From a virus (Duplodnaviria > Heunggongvirae > Uroviricota > Caudoviricetes): 64,000 nt of DNA. The stretch lies in IMG/VR virus record IMGVR_UViG_3300045988_147305; one strand, given 5' to 3'. The notes beneath the pieces are model-generated. The model made no database searches and was not told the DNA's origin. It saw only the letters and a list, made by a program, of their open reading frames with translations. Positions within the stretch are counted from its first letter, which is position 1; each line of letters begins with the position of its first letter. Positions 11,600 to 56,562 of the stretch are shown here, piece by piece. The position numbers and the translations under genes were made by a program.

Positions 11600-11774
11600 G
11601 TATTTTTAAGTCGCGAATGCTATCTTTTCGCATCATATTGACCTTTTAATCGTTCAGGCTTATAGTTCCACCGTCGTAGCAAATTCTGCGACCGGGTTTG
11701 ACAGCCTGAATGTTAGTGCGGACAACCGCAGATTTCCGATATTGCGGTATTTTTGTGTCCGTAAACCGCGTTAC

Positions 11775-11860
11775 GCCCGAATTATGGTGGGGCGTGATGG
11801 GGAGGCTTCGGCCTGCTGGTTTCACTAACGCCAGTCTGTCAACCCTGTCACGTCCTGCCA
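11775..11860 (+). ncRNA. c4-like antisense immunity RNA (approximate bounds)
   Basis: CACTAAC...CTGTCAACCC (11825-11845) is complementary to the direct-repeat targets GTTTGACAGC/GTTAGTG at 11693-11715 and 11861-11895, the latter just upstream of the icd RBS. Confidence 0.4.
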
Positions 11861-11912
11861 CCTGTTTGACAGCGGGTAGCAGGTTGTTAAACCTGTTAGT
11901 GAGGCCGTAACT

Positions 11913-15310: not shown

Positions 15311-15492
15311 TACAATCGCTGCGGGTGCTTGAGGCTATCTGCTTCAGGCATTACCCGACAAGCAGATAGAAGAAAGCCCCAGATAACATTACGCGTCCTG
15401 CAAGACGCTTAACATTAATCTGAGGCCATATCTATGCTTAGCATACGTAGATTAGCCCTCTCCCCTTTTTAGGAGCAAGGAATTTTTTACTG

Positions 15493-16089
15493 CTATGCCG
15501 CCTTTCCAATTATGGATTCAGCGACCAGAACAACCCCATGCTTACTTCGATCTGGGTGTTCACTCCATATCTCGGATTCAGGAATACTTACCCCGTCATA
15601 GCAAACACGTTCGCCGTCAAACGGGTAATACTGAGCGGCATCGGTGTCGAGGATAAACACTTTTAGCTCGGAAGAGCGACGGGCGATGTGTTGCCAAAGA
15701 GCTTTTCCACCTTCGTATTGCTCATTATCACTGAGCAAAACAACACCAGCTTTTGAGGCTACGGTTTCGTAAACAAAAGTAGCTAAACCGACATCCCGGA
15801 CGGTTCCATCAACCACGATACCTTCAATCTGGGCAACATCGCTATCCTCCCAGAACTTCCTTACCAGTACGCCTTCAAGCTGCGGGCGACGTTGAAGTTC
15901 AAGAGTAGCGACAACCTTATGGCGCATATCACCATCGATAACAGAAGGCGCAGCCTCTATTACAGCTGCAAATGGGGTTTTGGAATCCCATATAACCTGG
16001 TAAAGCACACCCTGGATGGTAACTCCGTCCAGGATCGAAAATCGACGAGCGACAGTACCCGGGGAGTACGACATTGGAATCACAGCCAT
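15493..16089 (-). CDS. Hypothetical protein (pmgF-like position)
   Basis: ORF with RBS AAGGGGGAC before ATG at 16089. Confidence 0.4.
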   Translation of the reverse strand: MAVIPMSYSPGTVARRFSILDGVTIQGVLYQVIWDSKTPFAAVIEAAPSVIDGDMRHKVVATLELQRRPQLEGVLVRKFWEDSDVAQIEGIVVDGTVRDVGLATFVYETVASKAGVVLLSDNEQYEGGKALWQHIARRSSELKVFILDTDAAQYYPFDGERVCYDGVSIPESEIWSEHPDRSKHGVVLVAESIIGKAA

Positions 16090-45584: not shown

Positions 45585-46282
45585 AGATTGCTTTAGTTTT
45601 TCGCTCTGGTGGTGACTATAACGCTTCCGATGTGCAGTGGCTGGTTAATCAACTGCCAAAAGACTATGAAATTATTTGCCTGACAGACCTGAAGTGTTTA
45701 CATGTACCTGGCGTCAAAGTTATCCCATTGATCAACCAGTGGCAAAAGTGCCGTGGCTGGTGGGCGAAAATCGAGTTGTTCCGACCGGATATAACCGATG
45801 ATCTGTTCTATCTGGATTTGGACACGGTTATTGCCGGTGATATACGCCCAATCCTAGAGCATCCACCAACCAGCTTCACCATGCTTAGGGATTTTTACCA
45901 TCCACAATATCGTGGCAGCGGTGCCCTGTGGATACCAAATAGTGTTAAAGCGCATATCTGGAGTTCATTCTGGCAAGATCCGGAAGGTTGGATTTCTCGT
46001 TGTGTCACTACTGAGTGCTGGGGTGACCAGGGGTTCTTACGAAAGGTTATGGGCGATGATACACCAGCATTTCAGGATCTGTATCCAGGATGGTTTGTAA
46101 GTTACAAGGCCGATGTTGTGGAACCTGGTTCAAAATATGCGAGCGCGCGTTACTCCAGGGGGAATGGGACATTACCAAAAGACTGCCGAATAATCTTTTT
46201 CCACGGCAAACCGCGACCTCGCGAAGTGTCAGAGGATTGGCTTCCCCTTATCAGCTCATTTTTTGAGCGAGAATCAGAATAA
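45581..46282 (+). CDS. GT-A-like nucleotide-sugar transferase (DxD motif)
   Basis: 233 aa with YLDLDTV. Confidence 0.45.
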
Positions 46283-46283
46283 T

Positions 46284-46349
46284 ATTGCTCTAATAATTCC
46301 ATATTTTTAAAACGTGATGTACACTCATCACGTTTTTTATTAGAGCAAT
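46284..46349. promoter_or_regulatory. Two inverted C1 operators flanking a terminator hairpin
   Basis: ATTGCTCTAATAATTCC (46284-46300), hairpin AACGTGATG/CATCACGTT plus T-run (46309-46340), reverse-complement ATTGCTCTAATAAAA (46335-46349). Confidence 0.65.
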
Positions 46350-46363
46350 CTACAAGGTGCACT

Positions 46364-46582
46364 ATGTGGCCATTCCGACGGAAATATCACTACTGGCTGA
46401 TCGCCTTTGTTACGCCGACCGGCGGTATCAGGCATGTCATCACCAGGTATCGCAACAAGAGACTCACCTTAGCCAGAATTTTACAGGCTGCCATAGGTGA
46501 GGGACTGGATACAAATTGCGTAGTCCTTCCTCCTTCATACTTAGGAAAAATGACCGAAGCACAAGCTAATACGGAACTTTGA
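46364..46582 (+). CDS. Small hypothetical protein
   Basis: 72-aa ORF directly after the operator pair. Confidence 0.35.
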   Translation: MWPFRRKYHYWLIAFVTPTGGIRHVITRYRNKRLTLARILQAAIGEGLDTNCVVLPPSYLGKMTEAQANTEL

Positions 46583-46583
46583 A

Positions 46584-47846
46584 ATGAGCACTTCAGCACA
46601 AAACCAATCAATCGAAAATGTATGTATCCCTGATGTCCTGAATGCCGGTATCCCGGCCATTATCCAGAACATCCGGGCCGCGCAACGCCGCGTTAGTTGT
46701 GATGACCTCACAGCACGTTTTTTTGATAATGCGGTTCAGTCAGCGGAGATGCTTCACGCACAGCTTATTGATGTTTATAACGCAGAAGCTGATAGCCATA
46801 ACTCCCTGGTAGATGCAGCTGAAAATATGCAGTTGGATCTCGGTCTGAAGGGTAAAGAAATTGAAGAGCTTCAGCTGGAAATTGAACATTTGAAACGCCA
46901 GCAACAGGACGCGATCGACGATGCGACGCATGACGCCAACCAGCGTGCTGATAATGCCGAACGTATAAGCATTGAGCTGGAAACAAAACTCAATGAAATG
47001 ACCGCGATGGTTGAACTGCGGAACTCACAGATTTCAACGCTAAAATCTCAATATAAAGAGATCATGAAACTTGATCCTTTTAACCTTGAGAAACGCTATA
47101 ACAAAGCTAAAAGCGAGCGACAGGAACTGCGTAAGCAGGTCGCCGACCTTAACCAACAGCTCAAAAAAACTATTAAAGATGCAAGCGAGGCGCGCGTGGC
47201 ATTTGCTAATAAAAAAGCAGAGGTTACCGCGCTGGTTAATGAGAATGCCAAATTTGCGACGCTCAAGAAGGAAATGTATGGCATTACTGAGCGCCGTTTC
47301 CCTGCAAGCAAACTTCATCCGACGTTAGGGCAAATCTCCTTCTTCCCGCGCCTCCTGGCTTATGGGATCTCATCGCCTAAAGAGTTCAATAACGAGCGTC
47401 CTTATATCGTTTCTAAGCTGGACTTTGCTTATCAGTTCTGCTGCGACATGGGCTATGCCATTGATATCCGAATCAACGAATGGTTGATGCCAAACTTCCA
47501 GCCGTTGGCAATTTTCCGCGAGTTCCAGCCGGAAGGTTGGGTAGAGTTCTTCCATGAATTGATCTGTAAAGAGATGGAAAGCCGTCGCCCGGAATTGGTC
47601 CGTCGAGTTGAGTGGGCGCAAGAGGTTATGTTGGCAGATGCAGAGCTGCCGTTCGAACCGGAATTCATTGATGATCTGGCAACTAAAGGGCTGCATACCC
47701 TGTTTGATGTGGTTACCCGCCGTCATGAGCAGTTGGTTGTCGAATTGGGTTTAGAGGAAACTGCGGCAAGAAGACTTCTCGATGTTTGCTATGCACGTAG
47801 CGATGCATGGGAAAAAGAGAACGGCGGCACTATTTACGTTCGCTGA
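46584..47846 (+). CDS. Coiled-coil protein of unknown function
   Basis: 420 aa; long predicted coiled coil at residues about 60-220. Confidence 0.45.
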   Translation: MSTSAQNQSIENVCIPDVLNAGIPAIIQNIRAAQRRVSCDDLTARFFDNAVQSAEMLHAQLIDVYNAEADSHNSLVDAAENMQLDLGLKGKEIEELQLEIEHLKRQQQDAIDDATHDANQRADNAERISIELETKLNEMTAMVELRNSQISTLKSQYKEIMKLDPFNLEKRYNKAKSERQELRKQVADLNQQLKKTIKDASEARVAFANKKAEVTALVNENAKFATLKKEMYGITERRFPASKLHPTLGQISFFPRLLAYGISSPKEFNNERPYIVSKLDFAYQFCCDMGYAIDIRINEWLMPNFQPLAIFREFQPEGWVEFFHELICKEMESRRPELVRRVEWAQEVMLADAELPFEPEFIDDLATKGLHTLFDVVTRRHEQLVVELGLEETAARRLLDVCYARSDAWEKENGGTIYVR

Positions 47847-47918
47847 TAGTTACAGTGTCACTTTTAATGCTGGTGGAGTGCTCCCACCAGCATTTTTTTC
47901 GTCCAATGAGGAGGGCAT

Positions 47919-48425
47919 TTGAGTATTTTCAATAAACACGCACACCAGGAACGTCCGTACATCGTCATAGTAGATATTGATGGGACGATATCAGAGGCAA
48001 CGGAAGACAGGCTGCATTTACTTCCACCACCTGGCAAAGGTGCATTAACAGAGCACTGGAACGAGTTTAACCTTGCCTGTGACACTGATGCTCCCATCAC
48101 TCCAGTTATTGATATGGTGCGCCAGTTGTCCGGCATTTACACCCTCTGGTTTGTAACCGGGCGCTGTGAGATAGCCAGGGATAAAACACGAGCCTGGTTG
48201 CGTAAGCACGTAACAAATGGGGCGGAGCCTTTGCTATCTATGCGTCCTGCCACCGATGACAGAAATGACGGTCCAGCAAAGATTGATCTCCTGAAGAAAA
48301 TTGGTCTAAGTAAAATTGCGTTCGCGCTGGAAGATAAGATTGAAGTGGCGCGTGTTTTCAGGAGTCACGGCGTACTTACGTTAATGGTCAGGGAGTATGA
48401 AAACGCGCTTCTCCATCAACAATAA
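47919..48425 (+). CDS. HAD-superfamily phosphatase-like protein
   Basis: N-terminal DIDGT motif; 168 aa. Confidence 0.5.
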   Translation: MSIFNKHAHQERPYIVIVDIDGTISEATEDRLHLLPPPGKGALTEHWNEFNLACDTDAPITPVIDMVRQLSGIYTLWFVTGRCEIARDKTRAWLRKHVTNGAEPLLSMRPATDDRNDGPAKIDLLKKIGLSKIAFALEDKIEVARVFRSHGVLTLMVREYENALLHQQ

Positions 48426-48441
48426 TTGCTCTAATAAATCT
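48425..48441 (+). promoter_or_regulatory. C1 operator
   Basis: ATTGCTCTAATAAATCT. Confidence 0.65.
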
Positions 48442-48619
48442 TGATTTTTAAAACAGAGAAAGTGAAAATAAAAACATGCCGTAAGGCGCGGCATGTATCC
48501 AATCAATCACAGGAGCTGAAAATATGAACACGGCATTCAAAATCATTATGGCCGCGATCTATTTCTGGCTGTTCTCTATCACTTTTGGCGGCATCGTCGC
48601 ACATGGGTAAGGGGGATGC

Positions 48620-49327
48620 ATGAAAGGCGAAGTGAAAGAGCGCGGCATGATTTTCAACGATGAGATGGTCCGGGCCATCCTCGAAGGAAGGAAAACGCAG
48701 ACGCGGCGGATAATGAAAAATCAGCCTGCGGAAGTTGGTCCAGAAGCACCAGTGATGGTTAGAAAAATTGGTGCAGGTTTTCAGTGGTACGGGGCTGATG
48801 GTGTAAGCAGTGTTTTCAATTGCCCATTTGGTATCGTCGGCGATCGAATTTGGGTTCGTGAAACATGGGCGATATTAGGCAATGAGGATGGTTGCAGTGT
48901 GGACTGGAACGACAACCTTTGTCGTGGCGATGAGAAGAACGCAGCAAGGATTTATCGGGCCAGTTGCGAGCAAAAACCTGGTGATTACGGCTTATGGTCG
49001 ATACCCGATGATGCCGACTGGAAACCTCACACTGTGAATGAAAAGTTTGATGGTGGGTGGCGTCCATCAATTCACATGCCGCGATGGGCATCACGCATTC
49101 TGTTGGAAATTACCAACGTGCGCGTTGAACGGTTGAACGATATCAGCGAATGCGATGCAAGGGCTGAGGGCGTTCCGCCTGCTGGAAGTTTGCTTCCTGA
49201 TCACCCGGGAACATTCCTTACTCCCAAGGGGGATTTCGCAATGGCCAAGGTTGCGTTCCAGCGCCTGTGGGAATCCATCTATGGTGAAGAAAGCTGGAAC
49301 GCTAATCCCTGGGTGTGGGTACCGTGA
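48620..49327 (+). CDS. ASCH/PUA-like domain phage protein
   Basis: N-terminal MIFNDEMVRAILEGRKTQTRR ... GDRIWVRETW ... EITNVRVERL, a pattern common in prophage ASCH-like proteins. Confidence 0.45.
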   Translation: MKGEVKERGMIFNDEMVRAILEGRKTQTRRIMKNQPAEVGPEAPVMVRKIGAGFQWYGADGVSSVFNCPFGIVGDRIWVRETWAILGNEDGCSVDWNDNLCRGDEKNAARIYRASCEQKPGDYGLWSIPDDADWKPHTVNEKFDGGWRPSIHMPRWASRILLEITNVRVERLNDISECDARAEGVPPAGSLLPDHPGTFLTPKGDFAMAKVAFQRLWESIYGEESWNANPWVWVP

Positions 49328-49744: not shown

Positions 49745-50370
49745 TGATGTGCTTGCGTGAAACTGTGGGTAATAACGCCTCATTCCATTGCCATAACGGC
49801 AATGGTTACAGTTCTGATATCGATCGCGCTCATGTTTACACGCTGGAAGAAGCCCAAAAAGCCTGGAATTGTGGGCGAGATATCGATCAGCCTGTTTGTG
49901 CCGATAGTGTGGATGCAATGGCTGTGTGGCACGTTGATTGCCAGTACATCCCTACAGAAAGCCTGATTGAGTCAGATTGCACTGCGTATGTGGCCTACAA
50001 AAAAGGTAGCTGGAACGGCAACGATGTTTACTGGCTTCAACACGGTGGATTGCCAACAGATGACTTCAGTAAAGCGACCATCTTTAGCGTCGCCAACAAA
50101 AACGAACCAGGAATAGTTTGGTTGCCATTTTCCATTGCTGATGCAGCAAAGCGCCGGACGTTCAATATCAATAAATTTAACCGCAGAACAATGGTTCAGG
50201 GCGCAGGTTTGGTCATGCCTGACTGGTTGAAAAAGCAGAACAGAAGAAAGAAGTCGCGAAGCGGGAAGGTGCGTTGGAATTGTCCGCATTGCGGAAAAAT
50301 CACCTGGCAGTACAGCCCATATGATTTTGAAGGCTGTCGTGATTACAACTGTGAAGGATGGCGAGAATGA
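49745..50370 (+). CDS. Hypothetical protein with C-terminal zinc ribbon
   Basis: WNCPHCGK ... CRDYNCEGW motif. Confidence 0.4.
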
Positions 50371-51089
50371 CAATTGACTATCAGGTACTGCGTGAGGCGG
50401 CAGAAAAGGCAACACCAGACGAATGGGTCGCATTTATTTCGCCGGGTACTGGTACATATGCGGTGCATACACCCGGTGATAAACGATGTGGAGACGTTAT
50501 CAAATGGCCCGGCTTTGATGGACAGGAAAACGCAGAGAATAACGCTCGTTATGTTGCCGCGTTCAACCCAAAGGTTGCACTGGAGCTGCTTGGTGAAATT
50601 AAGCGCCTGGAGGACACAAATATTGATGCTATGTGTCGAATTGCAGAGCTTGAGACTAATCTCGCGGCGCTGGTGGCGGAGAATGCGGGGCTTAAGGCCT
50701 TCAAAACCGCCGTTTATCAGCAGATGGGCGTCGGATGTGATGCTCCTGAATTCTCCATTACGGTAGGTTTGAGTAACTTACGTCGTTTTGCTGACACACT
50801 CCACGCCATTGAGCGTGAGTTCTTTACCAAAGAGCTACCTGATGAAGAGCACGAAGGCGAAACATTCAATGAATGTCCACTTAGCTGGGGAATGAGCGTC
50901 GAACAGTACGTTTCCGAGTTTCGCAAATGCCTGGCTGAAGTGCGGGCGCAGGGATTGGAGATGTTTGCACAGAAATGTAACTCAAAATCCGAACAGTCAT
51001 TTGCATCTGATATACGCGATAACTGGAAACTACTCGGTGAACATGCCACTGACTTTGCCGCAGAGCTTCGAAAAGGAGGCAACCAGTGA
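50358..51089 (+). CDS. Ead/Ea22-like protein, paralog 1
   Basis: N-terminal IDYQVLREAAEKATPDEW and coiled-coil middle typical of lambdoid Ea22-like proteins. Confidence 0.5.
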   Translation: MARMTIDYQVLREAAEKATPDEWVAFISPGTGTYAVHTPGDKRCGDVIKWPGFDGQENAENNARYVAAFNPKVALELLGEIKRLEDTNIDAMCRIAELETNLAALVAENAGLKAFKTAVYQQMGVGCDAPEFSITVGLSNLRRFADTLHAIEREFFTKELPDEEHEGETFNECPLSWGMSVEQYVSEFRKCLAEVRAQGLEMFAQKCNSKSEQSFASDIRDNWKLLGEHATDFAAELRKGGNQ

Positions 51090-51838
51090 GCAAGATTGAC
51101 TATCAGGCACTGCGTGAGGCGGCAGAGCGTGCAATTCCGGCAATGGAACGCCTGTTAATGTTGCCAGTTGATGATGATCTGATAAGTGAACAGGAACTTA
51201 AAGATTACGGCGTGGATATTGATGCGCTCAACGCCTTCAAATTTCTGACCGGACCAGAAACCGTGCTGGCGCTGCTGGATGAACGGGAAAGAAACCAGCA
51301 ATACATAAAACGCCGCGATCAGGAGAACGAGGATATTGCGCTAACGGTAGGGAAGCTGAGAGTTGAGCTTGAGGAAGTAAAACAACACGCTGAAGAATTA
51401 TCCGAAACCAAGGCTGTTCGTAACCAATGGCGGCCAGATATTTGCCCAATAACCGGACGTGCATTTTTCATGTGGATTGAGCATCCAACATTGGGAAATG
51501 TGCCGACATATGGTGGCCCATTAGATAGTTACACCATTCCAACAAAGGACGGTGACGGTGAGTTTTCATGTGAGCGTTACGATCATGATTTTGGCGGTTG
51601 GGTAGAAAGCGAATGTCTTGGGGTATATCTGATTGATGATAGAGAACAATGCAGGGTCTACGAACTGGAGGAACGCGTTAAGGAACTGGATGCTCGGGAA
51701 ATATCGCTCCCGGAACGTAGCAGCATGCTTCATCGAACAGATTTTCACGATGATTACCAAACGGTAATGGCATACAAAGTTTCTGAAGTCATCGCTGCAA
51801 TCCGCGCCGCAGGCATTCGCATCAAAGGAGGTGAGTAA
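51086..51838 (+). CDS. Ead/Ea22-like protein, paralog 2
   Basis: N-terminal KIDYQALREAAERA, paralogous to the upstream gene. Confidence 0.5.
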   Translation: MSKIDYQALREAAERAIPAMERLLMLPVDDDLISEQELKDYGVDIDALNAFKFLTGPETVLALLDERERNQQYIKRRDQENEDIALTVGKLRVELEEVKQHAEELSETKAVRNQWRPDICPITGRAFFMWIEHPTLGNVPTYGGPLDSYTIPTKDGDGEFSCERYDHDFGGWVESECLGVYLIDDREQCRVYELEERVKELDAREISLPERSSMLHRTDFHDDYQTVMAYKVSEVIAAIRAAGIRIKGGE

Positions 51839-52184
51839 TGCGTGTGGCATGTATCGGCTTGTTACCGTACCCGACTCGTTTTTGGGCTTCTGCGCTAATT
51901 GCGAAGCCGTATGTCCTGATGGCTGACAACATCATCCCGGCACCAAAGCGCCGCCATACCGGTATTGCAGCGGCACGACGAGCAGCAAAGAGACGCAGGA
52001 GAGCAAAGCGATGAAAAACCGTAAGGCAAAACGACTTTTTTTTACAGCGACCTGTGCGTGTGGTGGAGCTGGTTATTAGCAACCATAAGATAGCGGTACT
52101 CCATCCATTTGGTCAGGTGGCTTTTGCCGCAAAGCGTAAGCCTACTGCGTCACAGAACAGGCGGAAGAAAGGGTACGCTGTAAG

Positions 52185-52373
52185 ATGAAAAACCGTAAAG
52201 CAAAGATTCTGTTAGTTCGTAGAAACGCTCCTGGCGTCTGGCAGTGGGTGAGACTCAGCAACCGACGGATGGGGTTGATGAAATATTACGGGATGATGGA
52301 TTGTGGTTTTTGCAAAAAGCCCAGCGCGGCGCAAAACCGCTGGAAAAACCACTTGCGCACTAAAGGAGAGTGA
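52185..52373 (+). CDS. Small basic protein
   Basis: 62-aa ORF; a truncated duplicate of its first codons lies at 52012. Confidence 0.3.
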   Translation: MKNRKAKILLVRRNAPGVWQWVRLSNRRMGLMKYYGMMDCGFCKKPSAAQNRWKNHLRTKGE

Positions 52374-52377
52374 TATG

Positions 52378-53352: not shown

Positions 53353-53562
53353 ATGGCTATTGCCGCAAGTTACACAATGCATCTCTATTGTGATTGCCTC
53401 CAGTGTACAGATGGCAAATATAAGTCGCCAGACTTCGGTGAGTATATCGGTACGTCATGGTCTGGTTGTGCAAAAGAGGCCCGTAAAGACGGGTGGCGAA
53501 TAAGCGCCGACAAAACACGTGCTTTTGCGCCCGGGCATAAAGTTTTGAGGATTAACAAATGA
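53353..53562 (+). CDS. Small Cys-rich protein
   Basis: 69 aa with CDCLQC...C. Confidence 0.35.
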   Translation: MAIAASYTMHLYCDCLQCTDGKYKSPDFGEYIGTSWSGCAKEARKDGWRISADKTRAFAPGHKVLRINK

Positions 53563-54167
53563 CCACTATTACCAGAGAACAAACTCTGAAAATTATTGAG
53601 GCAGCCGATGAGGTTATTAGTGCGCTTGCCGGAACTAACGAGGATGTTCACCCTGGTAGCGATAACATGCTACGCCTGTGGGATGACCTGAATGACCGTT
53701 ACGCGCCCCCGGAAGTAGTGCGTGAGCTGGCACGAATTGTGCTGGCATCGCTGGAAGCCGAACCTGTAAGCCAAACTTACAACTTGCCAGAATTAATCGA
53801 GGGCATGGAAGTTTCCATTGATGTAAGCACTTGTGATGCTGATTTAGGTAATCGCTATTTCGGCACCGTCACCGAGGCGTCAGAACTTGATACTGCCAAG
53901 AATGGTTACATCCTCCTGGTTCAGGACGCAGAGCCAAACTTCGATGTAAATGGCAACTCTCCGGTAACTCCGGATAGTTGGATAAGCTGTAGTGAGCGAA
54001 TGCCCGCTCAAGATGATTGGATTTTAATTTATTCAAAGCACGGCGAGTATATGGCAGGCCAGGTGCAAGGGGAATACGTGGAGTTGAGCGACGGCACTTT
54101 ATCGTGGTTAGGGAACGCCTTGTTCTGGATGCCGCTACCAGAACCGCCGCAGGAGGTGAATCAATGA
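53559..54167 (+). CDS. DUF551-like domain protein
   Basis: C-terminal WISCSERMP...DWILIY...WMPLPEPP pattern. Confidence 0.45.
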   Translation: MTTITREQTLKIIEAADEVISALAGTNEDVHPGSDNMLRLWDDLNDRYAPPEVVRELARIVLASLEAEPVSQTYNLPELIEGMEVSIDVSTCDADLGNRYFGTVTEASELDTAKNGYILLVQDAEPNFDVNGNSPVTPDSWISCSERMPAQDDWILIYSKHGEYMAGQVQGEYVELSDGTLSWLGNALFWMPLPEPPQEVNQ

Positions 54168-54249
54168 GCTGGCCTGAAGCATTCACCACGGTAGGAATTG
54201 TGATGGCGGCAGCACTGGGTTTGTATTCAATTTGTCGCTGGTGGTAACG

Positions 54250-54483
54250 ATGGGAAAAATAACTTTTGTAGTCGAATTTGAGGATGGCAAAGAGCCACCT
54301 GTTAGCGCCAATCTTGATGTTGCTGGTGGCAGGCTTGTTTCGGTTCTATTTGGTGACTACCGAGATGACTTCTTCCAACCAGAAGAAGTTGATGTAGTGC
54401 GAGAGGCATTAAACGAGTTAAGTGTTGATAACGATGATGCTCATGCGGAAATCATCCAAAAAATGGAACTGCTAACTCACTAA
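54250..54483 (+). CDS. Small strongly acidic protein
   Basis: About 77 aa with roughly 19 Asp/Glu and 6 basic residues. Confidence 0.4.
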   Translation: MGKITFVVEFEDGKEPPVSANLDVAGGRLVSVLFGDYRDDFFQPEEVDVVREALNELSVDNDDAHAEIIQKMELLTH

Positions 54484-54531: not shown

Positions 54532-54654
54532 ATGTCAAAAGTAAATGTTTTGATTTTTTCAGCAATTGTTGGCTTTGGTTTTACTGCCGGAGTGCAGATT
54601 TATATTACGTGGGAAAAAATCATCAACTACGCATGGAGTTGTTTTATTAAGTGA
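54532..54654 (+). CDS. 40-aa hydrophobic peptide
   Basis: Hand-translated MSKVNVLIFSAIVGFGFTAGVQIYITWEKIINYAWSCFIK; below the ORF-track cutoff. Confidence 0.3.
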   Translation: MSKVNVLIFSAIVGFGFTAGVQIYITWEKIINYAWSCFIK

Positions 54655-54961: not shown

Positions 54962-55336
54962 ATGATGACACTAAAACATTTTCTTGACCGCCCATTATGG
55001 GCGGCAGCCGCAGGCTATGACTTTAATTATATGGATTGCATGTCTTATACCGCCAATGCATACGACTATTCCTTCAGTCTGCTGCTTAATTCTTTAAGAA
55101 TATTGCCGCAAACAGAAGTTGGAGAGCTTCATTTATGGCTATTGGGCTTTATCGCGGCTGGAGTTGGTATTGCTGTATGGCCTTTTATTTTCTGGCTGGT
55201 GGCTGTTGTAGTGTGGTTTAAGTGCAAGACGTACCGGAGAAAGTATTTCTTAGGTGATGGAATGACTGATATTGCCAAAATGAACATTGAAAAATGGACT
55301 AAGGAATGTGAAAAGAAATGGCGCAAAAAGAAATGA
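54962..55336 (+). CDS. Small membrane protein
   Basis: 124 aa with a hydrophobic segment GFIAAGVGIAVWPFIFWLVAVVVWF. Confidence 0.4.
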   Translation: MMTLKHFLDRPLWAAAAGYDFNYMDCMSYTANAYDYSFSLLLNSLRILPQTEVGELHLWLLGFIAAGVGIAVWPFIFWLVAVVVWFKCKTYRRKYFLGDGMTDIAKMNIEKWTKECEKKWRKKK

Positions 55337-56226
55337 CCAGAATCACTGAAGAGCGTATATCAGAGATTATTTCCCGTATCGAAATGTATGGTCACGGTGC
55401 TGGATATACGGCAGATGAAGTATTGGCACTTGCCCAAATGGCTTTGGCGGCTTGCAAAGATGATAAAAAAATGAAGTTTATCGACTTGTTAGTGAAGGAA
55501 CTGCCTAAGTGCGGCGGGTGGCCTGATGGAATGAGTTATTGTTACCTACCCAGTGTCAATTTAATGGCACCATGCGCGACTTTTGCTTTTGGCTCAGACC
55601 ACAAAAAAGACACTTTCTTTGGGCGCAATTTTTGTTGTGAGATTGAGCTTCCAATTGGTGACCTTGATAGCGATGAATACCAGTCAGTTGTCACTCGCGA
55701 ACAATACGAATCAGCTCTCATAGCGTCGCAGAAAGTCGAGTTCAATGGTGATGAACTTGAAAGTAAGACTTACAGGTTGGATTTTGGGCAATGGCTGGAA
55801 CAGCAACGCGGGAAAATCGATGTGGACTGTGGTTGTGTGTCCACTGAAACATTCATGCACTGGCTGCGGGTAGCTTACGAGGCTGGCAACTATCCGGATA
55901 TTCCGGATAGTTCGGTGCCAGCACCAGGAAAGGGCGTCACCGGTGAACGTATCCGAATTAAGCCGCATGTTTATCGCGAACTGGTTAACCGTCTCCACGA
56001 TACAGCGATCAAGTGTGCTGGCACCCAGCAATTACGAGAAAGAATTAGCCGTGTTTTGGGCGACGTTATTACACCAGATCATCATAAACAAGCCGAGAAA
56101 AGCGGTCTGGAAAGGAGTCATCTTGAAGCGGCATTAAACATTAAACCGGGGCATACGCTAGGTGTCATTGATGCCATGTTGGTTCATGAAATGGCTAAGG
56201 CGTTATTGCCACTGGAGGCTGATTAA
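55333..56226 (+). CDS. Hypothetical protein
   Basis: About 300 aa; start uncertain (ORF-track start 55318). Confidence 0.4.
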   Translation: MTRITEERISEIISRIEMYGHGAGYTADEVLALAQMALAACKDDKKMKFIDLLVKELPKCGGWPDGMSYCYLPSVNLMAPCATFAFGSDHKKDTFFGRNFCCEIELPIGDLDSDEYQSVVTREQYESALIASQKVEFNGDELESKTYRLDFGQWLEQQRGKIDVDCGCVSTETFMHWLRVAYEAGNYPDIPDSSVPAPGKGVTGERIRIKPHVYRELVNRLHDTAIKCAGTQQLRERISRVLGDVITPDHHKQAEKSGLERSHLEAALNIKPGHTLGVIDAMLVHEMAKALLPLEAD

Positions 56227-56289
56227 ATTCCGGATAAAGCTGATATCTGATCACCATGCTAAAATCCCCTCAATTCACAGAGGGGATTT

Positions 56290-56562
56290 TTGTATATGTT
56301 GCGTAGATTTTTAGGTAAAAGCGTTATTGTCGGTGCGATGTTGGCTATGTCTGGGTGTGCTATGGTGCAATACAATGACGGAGAAAAGGTTAGCATCCAG
56401 TCAGATGGTTGGTATGGCCTGGATAGCCTGCAAAAAACAGCGGATAAAGCCTGCCAGCAATACGGAAAGTCTAAAGCCGTATATCAGCATAGCGCGAACG
56501 CTAACCCTCATCTTGCGCCCGGTTCGGGTGTTCAGAATACCATCTGGAAATGTGAGCCTTAA
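56290..56562 (+). CDS. Small lipoprotein
   Basis: Signal peptide with lipobox LAMSGC. Confidence 0.45.

Follow-up and report, generated by a model that had tools for sequence, protein, structure and literature searches.

An acidic 77-residue protein of P1-like phage-plasmids and its uncharacterised family of small early accessory proteins in Enterobacterales temperate phages

Several inhibitors of DNA-binding machinery are small and strongly acidic. Ocr (gp0.3 of phage T7) forms a dimer from two entirely helical chains of 116 aa each, and ArdA, with about 166 aa, is elongated and made up of three domains. Ugi, AcrIIA4, and AcrF2 are small acidic inhibitors with mixed alpha/beta folds, 77–90 aa in length, with about 20–25% Asp/Glu and a pI near 4, and the first two are known as small DNA mimics. 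Small proteins with acidic C-terminal parts are also found in the exo-xis (or “ea”) region of lambdoid phages, which lies in the early-left (PL) operon from the recombination genes to xis/int and includes the small, mosaic, and non-essential genes Ea22, Ea8.5, and orf60a/61/63/73 of lambda and Ea of P22. Published work gives exo-xis genes developmental effects and describes mosaic, acidic C-terminal domains, those of Ea22 among them, although the molecular mechanisms of the exo-xis proteins themselves are not established. The 77-aa protein described here belongs to an existing uncharacterised family, and its kind is a known one, namely the small mosaic early accessory genes of temperate phages. 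Its gene is best explained as a genuine, non-essential early accessory gene of the kind that fills the exo-xis region of lambdoid prophages, which reached variable region 8 of a P1-like phage-plasmid together with further lambda-type early genes in one block.

The whole stretch of DNA that was analysed, hereafter the window, has a length of 64,000 nucleotides and is a P1-like phage-plasmid. Over the 3.5 kb that surround the 77-aa gene it is 100% identical to the Klebsiella pneumoniae plasmid pCRKP-59-KPC, an IncF/IncY cointegrate and by its name a KPC plasmid, and 94–99% identical, in pieces, to the P1-like phages SJ46, RCS47, and vB_EcoM-813R1. Downstream of the gene follow hot (a homologue of the theta subunit), humD, phd-doc, pdcA/B, lpa, and pacA, and the C1 operator consensus is matched 11 times in the window, compared to 0.25 matches expected by chance. 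The C4 antisense RNA, its a1/b1 targets, and the three tRNA genes are likewise consistent with a P1-type genome (Table 1). At 15323–15497 Rfam recognises the sok antitoxin RNA, scoring 89.7 bits against a gathering threshold of 59, so that this P1-like element seems to include a module of the hok/sok type.

Comparison with reference P1 (NC_005856) by blastn aligned window positions 46000–49314 with P1 81868–85182, and window positions 55875–56221 with P1 85182–85528. Since these two flanks abut in P1, the block that separates them in the window has been inserted at one P1 position (85182), within pmgT. The interval from pmgT to humD is one of eight highly variable regions in a published comparison of P1-like plasmids, and RCS47 has eaa and ASCH genes instead in the slot of the block. 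In the window, a 235-aa protein (48620–49327) shares 99% identity over its 232 N-terminal residues with the N-terminal portion of P1 PmgT (309 aa), and a 302-aa protein is encoded at 55318–56226. Because the block sits at one P1 coordinate inside pmgT, P1 PmgT has the appearance of a fusion that joins the N-part of the 235-aa protein to the C-part of the 302-aa protein, and P1 pmgT may be a deletion chimera, left when the 6.56-kb block is absent.

In both the window and the P1 RefSeq record the operator OpmgT is found at the last base of pap, and in the latter it overlaps predicted promoters that are annotated for the pmgT operon. From about 48.5 to 56.2 kb all genes of the window are on the + strand, contiguous and tightly packed, and the terminator-like hairpin that follows is probably the end of the operon. 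To judge from this layout, the 77-aa gene would be transcribed from a C1-controlled promoter, early after infection or induction. Past the second Ead/Ea22-like gene, a stretch of about 0.5 kb (51839–52374) that leads up to the following annotated gene has no CDS in the identical RefSeq record and contains only short, very basic ORFs.

Table 1. Features of the window that are discussed in the text, with positions counted from its first nucleotide.
Feature	Position	Strand	Remarks
C4 antisense RNA with a1/b1 targets (P1 immunity-I) and three tRNA genes (Asn, Thr, Met)	11660–11712, 11780–11865, 32911–33064, 35065–35140		
C1 repressor operator ATTGCTCTAATAAATCT	48425–48441	+	Same sequence as P1 OpmgT (former Op88); follows pap directly
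Block absent from reference P1	49315–55874	+	6.56 kb; contains the 77-aa gene, the Ea22-like genes and the DUF551 gene
Two Ead/Ea22-like genes	50358–51089 and 51086–51838	+	Lambdoid exo-xis-type; same operon as the 77-aa gene
DUF551-domain gene	53559–54167	+	202 aa, net charge −26; upstream of the 77-aa gene
27-aa hydrophobic ORF (MSWPEAFTTVGIVMAAALGLYSICRWW)	54164–54247	+	Unannotated
GGTGG, Shine-Dalgarno-like site	54240–54244	+	5 nt before the 77-aa ATG, within the 3′ end of the 27-aa ORF; read from the sequence
77-aa acidic protein gene	54250–54483	+	ATG start, TAA included; WP_000516537.1, “hypothetical protein”; PHROG 3876
N-terminal module, codons 1–38	54250–54363	+	MGKxTFVVEFEDGKEP..GG.L....D; predicted strands 2–9 and 28–36 and long loop
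C-terminal part, codons 43–77	54376–54480	+	Predicted helices 44–56 and 62–74; fast-diverging, acidic
40-aa hydrophobic ORF	54532–54654	+	PHROG 5525; just downstream of the 77-aa gene
Terminator-like hairpin	56261–56290	+	11-pair stem

The 77-aa ORF, whose product is MGKITFVVEFEDGKEPPVSANLDVAGGRLVSVLFGDYRDDFFQPEEVDVVREALNELSVDNDDAHAEIIQKMELLTH, is a genuine gene rather than a frame left open by chance, because it has homologues, matches PHROG 3876 over its full length (E 4.7e-53, residues 1–77 on profile positions 1–77), shows dN/dS well below 1, is annotated in RefSeq in a plasmid that is 100% identical to the window there, and is preceded by a Shine-Dalgarno-like site. This site, together with the stop codon of the 27-aa ORF located 2 nt before the 77-aa ATG, suggests that translation of the gene may be coupled to that of the 27-aa ORF. 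The product contains 9 Asp and 9 Glu against 3 Lys and 3 Arg, with 2 His, giving 23% Asp/Glu, a pI of 4.16, and a net charge of about −12 at pH 7. An earlier note on this DNA had described a small, strongly acidic product of about 77 aa, and this is borne out, the net negative charge per residue (0.156) being the highest among the 166 ATG-started ORFs of at least 60 aa in the window; its tally of about 19 acidic against 6 basic residues was essentially right, the basic count being exact and the acidic count being 18. In approximate gene sets of the homologous prophage regions, with members of the 77-aa family included, a net negative charge of at least 0.12 per residue is reached by about 6% of the genes.

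Homologues of the protein number 104, down to 44% identity, most of them about 75–85 aa long with shorter partial and longer entries as well; all are hypothetical proteins, and every organism-named one comes from Enterobacterales. Residues 3–39 also match the 113-aa profile PHROG 6925, and the PHROG search matched only families without described function, membership in which is a name and not a mechanism. No family match was obtained in Pfam (E ≤ 0.1), NCBIfam, or PADLOC, and a literature search on WP_000516537.1 found no paper. The gene is common, being present in about 225 sequenced plasmids that are almost always P1-like phage-plasmids; the 225 records are mostly non-mobilizable and about 95 kb in size, ranging over about 86–130 kb for those listed. 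Among complete E. coli genomes 228 of 5,426 carry it, and plasmids account for 207 of the 233 places; outside P1-like plasmids the gene is seldom seen in E. coli. A 369-bp contig assigned to an Acinetobacter idrijaensis assembly (JQCU01000559.1) encodes residues 1–67 with 100% identity; it is probably a contamination of that assembly, because the distribution is otherwise strictly Enterobacterales.

Alignment of 71 family sequences divides the protein into two parts of different character. Residues T5, V7, G13, G27, D36, and Y37 are invariant, and M1, F6, V8, E9, E11, D12, K14, E15, P16, G26, R38, and D40 are conserved in at least 90% of the sequences; mean pairwise identity is 0.71 for residues 1–42 as against 0.35 for residues 43–77. 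Across the family, residues 43–77 contain 27% Asp/Glu and carry a net charge of −7.2 (range −2 to −11), the whole protein has a net charge of −11.4 ± 3.0 over the 71 members, and conserved acidic columns are found at positions 9, 11, 12, 15, 23, 36, 39, 40, 45, 48, 52, 56, 60–63, and 73. Acidity is a conserved family trait under selection, because net charge and acidic columns are kept while the C-terminal half diverges to 35% identity. In close pairs dN is well below dS, and in pairs of intermediate distance dN/dS is 0.04–0.17 for the N-terminal part and 0.25–0.8 for the C-terminal part, these being small samples of 38–41 codons. Between two homologues from Citrobacter prophages (L003 and L012), dN is 0.75 and dS 0.95 from codon 39 to the end (41 codons), compared to 0.13 and 2.9 in the N-terminal half; in this small sample the C-terminal half appears to evolve almost neutrally or diversifyingly, and the N-terminal half appears tightly constrained. 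The high dN/dS of the C-terminal half (up to 0.8, reached in one pair with 41 codons) could equally reflect relaxed constraint on a tail of which no more than solubility or acidity is required.

The structure predicted by AlphaFold2 with the family alignment consists of strands 2–9 and 28–36 connected via a long loop, a short turn, and helices 44–56 and 62–74. For the 77-aa model pLDDT is 82 and pTM 0.50, with pLDDT 70–80 in the N-terminal third; a 49%-identical homologue that was modelled separately again gave strands 2–9 and 28–36 and helix 44–56, followed by two C-terminal helices (pLDDT 84), and pTM across both models is only 0.50–0.52. In such a fold, positions 45, 48, 52, and 56 would form an acidic stripe on one face of helix 1 (i, i+3, i+7, i+11), and the hydrophobic columns 49/50, 53/54, and 57 alternate with these acidic columns. 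No structural neighbour of the predicted fold was found in the PDB or BFVD. The whole-family profile gave only two unrelated weak matches among all PDB sequences at E ≤ 10, and the whole-family and N-module profiles together gave insignificant matches only (E 0.057–5.7); Tudor-domain strings such as “VEFEDG” occurred among the PDB profile matches and were rejected as evidence. The earlier note had named a confident match to an unrelated fold with an assigned function as grounds for refutation, and no such fold appears; nor is any solved DNA mimic matched, since there is no PDB or BFVD neighbour at all.

The same note had likened the protein to Ocr- or ArdA-like inhibitors. Membership in either family is excluded, as there is no Pfam, NCBIfam, PDB-sequence, or fold match, and a predicted beta-hairpin with two helices is neither an all-helical dimer nor a three-domain chain. 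What the 77-aa protein shares with Ocr and ArdA is a strong negative charge, a low pI, an early expression that is inferred, and a location on a mobile element; the location itself is different from that of ArdA, which is found in the leading region of conjugative plasmids and transposons, in contrast to the pmgT operon here. Ugi, AcrIIA4, and AcrF2 are alike in size, acidity, and pI, but show no detectable sequence or structural similarity and occur in other taxonomic and genomic contexts. The traits of the DNA-mimic class in general, namely small size, more than 20% Asp/Glu, and a pI below 5, are present in the 77-aa protein and conserved across its family.

A strict DNA mimic, imitating B-DNA as Ocr and ArdA do in order to block type I/III restriction-modification, BREX, or a similar system early after entry, would agree with a composition and size within the range of Ugi, AcrIIA4, and Ocr, with the conserved acidity and the stripe on predicted helix 1, with an early repressor-controlled operon (its timing being inferred), and with a variable accessory locus; moreover the class spans many unrelated folds, so that a missing fold match does not exclude another one. 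We nevertheless regard it as an unlikely role. P1-type phages already have Dar, a virion-borne anti-restriction system, the protein is of neither the Ocr nor the ArdA family by sequence or fold, PADLOC found no defence-related neighbour of the gene, and none of the papers covered joins “exo-xis” with an anti-defence or anti-restriction term. Composition alone is weak evidence for DNA mimicry, because mimics are rare among anti-defence proteins (11 of 268 catalogued) and acidic surfaces are common in this gene neighbourhood.

Composition, acidity that is conserved despite turnover, an early repressor-controlled context, and an accessory locus are together compatible with a mimic or decoy role in the wider sense, without being specific to it. 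Our preferred reading, which we put forward tentatively, is that the 77-aa protein could be an early-expressed, stoichiometric acidic binder or decoy that acts on a basic, probably nucleic-acid-binding, surface of the host or of a competitor. Transcription would start when the C1 repressor leaves OpmgT/Op88, the equivalent trigger in the lambdoid relatives being the firing of the early-left operon, and translation would proceed in tandem with the preceding 27-aa ORF. The conserved N-terminal beta-hairpin would then pack against the helical hairpin, and the acidic surface made up of E9, E11, D12, E15, D36, D39, D40, E45, D48, E52, E56, D60–D63, and E73 would occupy the basic surface, for which a defence nuclease, a restriction-modification complex, or a nucleoid protein are candidates. 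The N-terminal module might serve as a constant scaffold or oligomerisation element, with the fast-evolving acidic helices as the contact surface. A Tad2-like anti-defence domain that is present in a relative sharing this module counts for the binder reading, though in 1 of 55 proteins only; counting against it are the lack of homology or fold match to a known inhibitor or mimic, and the fact that acidic proteins are common in the exo-xis gene class without a known decoy function.

The chromosomal relatives relate the family to the exo-xis region by position. Homologues from Citrobacter and Enterobacter belong to lambdoid prophages of the chromosome, where they occupy the distal end of the early-left operon, with kil, gam, recT, traR-like, and uncharacterised small genes upstream of them. 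At the loci L003–L009, L012, and L015 the homologue is found 0.3–0.7 kb upstream of xis/int, and at L007 only 75 bp separate it from xis. By-eye reading indicates an AlpA-type excisionase-like ORF within about 170 bp downstream at L013 and L016, the latter being the Pantoea homologue, and about 1 kb downstream at L020, while homologues from Proteus and Providencia lie among small early genes, near repressor-like and ssb-like ORFs that were also read by eye. The exo-xis position is thus reached via the chromosomal homologues only; the gene in the window itself belongs to a P1 operon, under a C1 operator in a P1-like plasmid prophage and not under lambdoid PL. The other features of the exo-xis class are found with the 77-aa gene too, since it travels with Ead/Ea22 and DUF551 genes and is variably present, the block being absent from P1 and its slot being filled differently in RCS47. 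Sequence and fold show no relation between the exo-xis proteins and the 77-aa protein.

This placement immediately upstream of xis/int, the co-location with two Ead/Ea22-like genes and a DUF551 gene, the published developmental effects of exo-xis genes with their mosaic, acidic C-terminal domains, and a protein of the same module that ends in an Ead/Ea22-like segment can all be read in favour of an exo-xis-type developmental modulator, which would tune lysis-lysogeny, prophage induction, or the host cell cycle via a host regulator and would have neither mimicry nor an anti-defence role. We consider this reading somewhat unlikely. It is a class label more than a mechanism, the protein has no homology to Ea22, Ea8.5, or orf60a/61/63/73, and the gene is retained in P1-like plasmids, which lack int/xis and use another immunity circuit.

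The N-terminal part of the protein is not confined to this family. An exhaustive profile search returned 151 proteins at E ≤ 0.001, and in more than 100 of them only the first 36 or so residues match, invariably at the very start of the carrier protein, with unrelated sequence following. These carriers (P0124–P0242) are otherwise unrelated small phage proteins. A Pfam scan of 55 of the longer ones identified DUF551 in 8 of them; one protein, P0203, has a Tad2-like domain (Thoeris anti-defence 2; residues 135–205, E 1e-12), and another, P0152, ends in an Ead/Ea22-like segment. As judged by eye, the tails of others have a coiled-coil-like, cysteine-rich, or hydrophobic character, most of them with a net acidic charge. 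Across the module the median dN/dS is 0.16 with synonymous sites saturated. That the N-terminus is a mere DNA-level recombination linker was considered and rejected, the protein sequence being kept while synonymous sites are saturated. Variants of the module at L022, L024, and L026 occupy the same position as the chromosomal homologues, near xis/int, and those fused to DUF551 lie one or two genes before xis/int. Among the 25 loci fetched and the window, no gene neighbour is common to all contexts and each locus has exactly one gene with the module; the absence of a conserved partner together with the single copy per locus suggests action on a host factor.

With at least 8 of the 55 longer relatives carrying the module fused directly to DUF551, and with a DUF551 gene directly upstream of the 77-aa gene in the window and in several prophages, the module might instead be a docking or oligomerisation element, whether fused to DUF551 or located on a separate small protein, and the 77-aa protein a partner or regulator of DUF551-type proteins. 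This appears very unlikely to us: many homologues have no adjacent DUF551 gene (at L003 the neighbours are DUF7694 and DUF4222), gene fusions may be products of recombination, rather than signs of function, in so highly mosaic a region, and DUF551 is itself without known function. A more far-reaching proposal, which we likewise hold to be very doubtful, is that the 36-aa module could be the constant “head” of a large unrecognised superfamily of early proteins in Enterobacterales temperate phages, present in one copy per phage and provided with interchangeable tails (acidic helices, DUF551, Tad2-like, zinc-ribbon-like, or coiled-coil). The head would dock on a common host hub and the tails would deliver counter-defence or host takeover, with the 77-aa protein, of a new fold, as the member that acts by DNA mimicry or as a decoy.

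If the 77-aa protein disarms a DNA-binding defence, this would help to explain how these phage-plasmids become established in new hosts, and the short list of DNA mimics would gain a new fold; if it is only a developmental fine-tuner or an acidic protein under low constraint, the finding is an ordinary one. Two by-products are of most interest, one being the possible “constant head, variable tail” superfamily, a pattern that offers a concrete handle on part of the long-uncharacterised lambdoid exo-xis gene set, and the other P1 pmgT as an apparent fusion without the 6.56-kb block.

The ORFs that flank the gene bring in one further explanation. The ATG of the 27-aa ORF overlaps the stop codon of the DUF551 gene (ATGA), with a strong AGGAGG located 7 nt upstream, and the ORF has no match among the PHROGs; the 40-aa ORF is a recognised phage family that is co-inherited with the 77-aa gene in P1-like plasmids and is unannotated in the identical RefSeq plasmid. 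Tight packing, the probable translational coupling to the 27-aa ORF, and the co-inheritance of the 40-aa ORF would suit a small membrane-peptide module, in which the acidic protein acts as an antitoxin-like neutraliser of the two hydrophobic peptides. We hold this to be extremely improbable, because chromosomal prophages do not keep the flanking peptides alongside the gene, as the short distance to xis at L007 illustrates; some P1-like plasmids, in addition, keep the 77-aa gene without the region of the 27-aa ORF, and no PADLOC match was obtained. In the E. coli plasmid NZ_CP043288.1 (L029, positions 2090–2776) a gene annotated as coding for a dATP/dGTP pyrophosphohydrolase-domain protein lies directly upstream in place of the DUF551 gene, and since such an arrangement is found in some P1-like plasmids, the gene upstream of the 77-aa gene seems to be itself variable among them.
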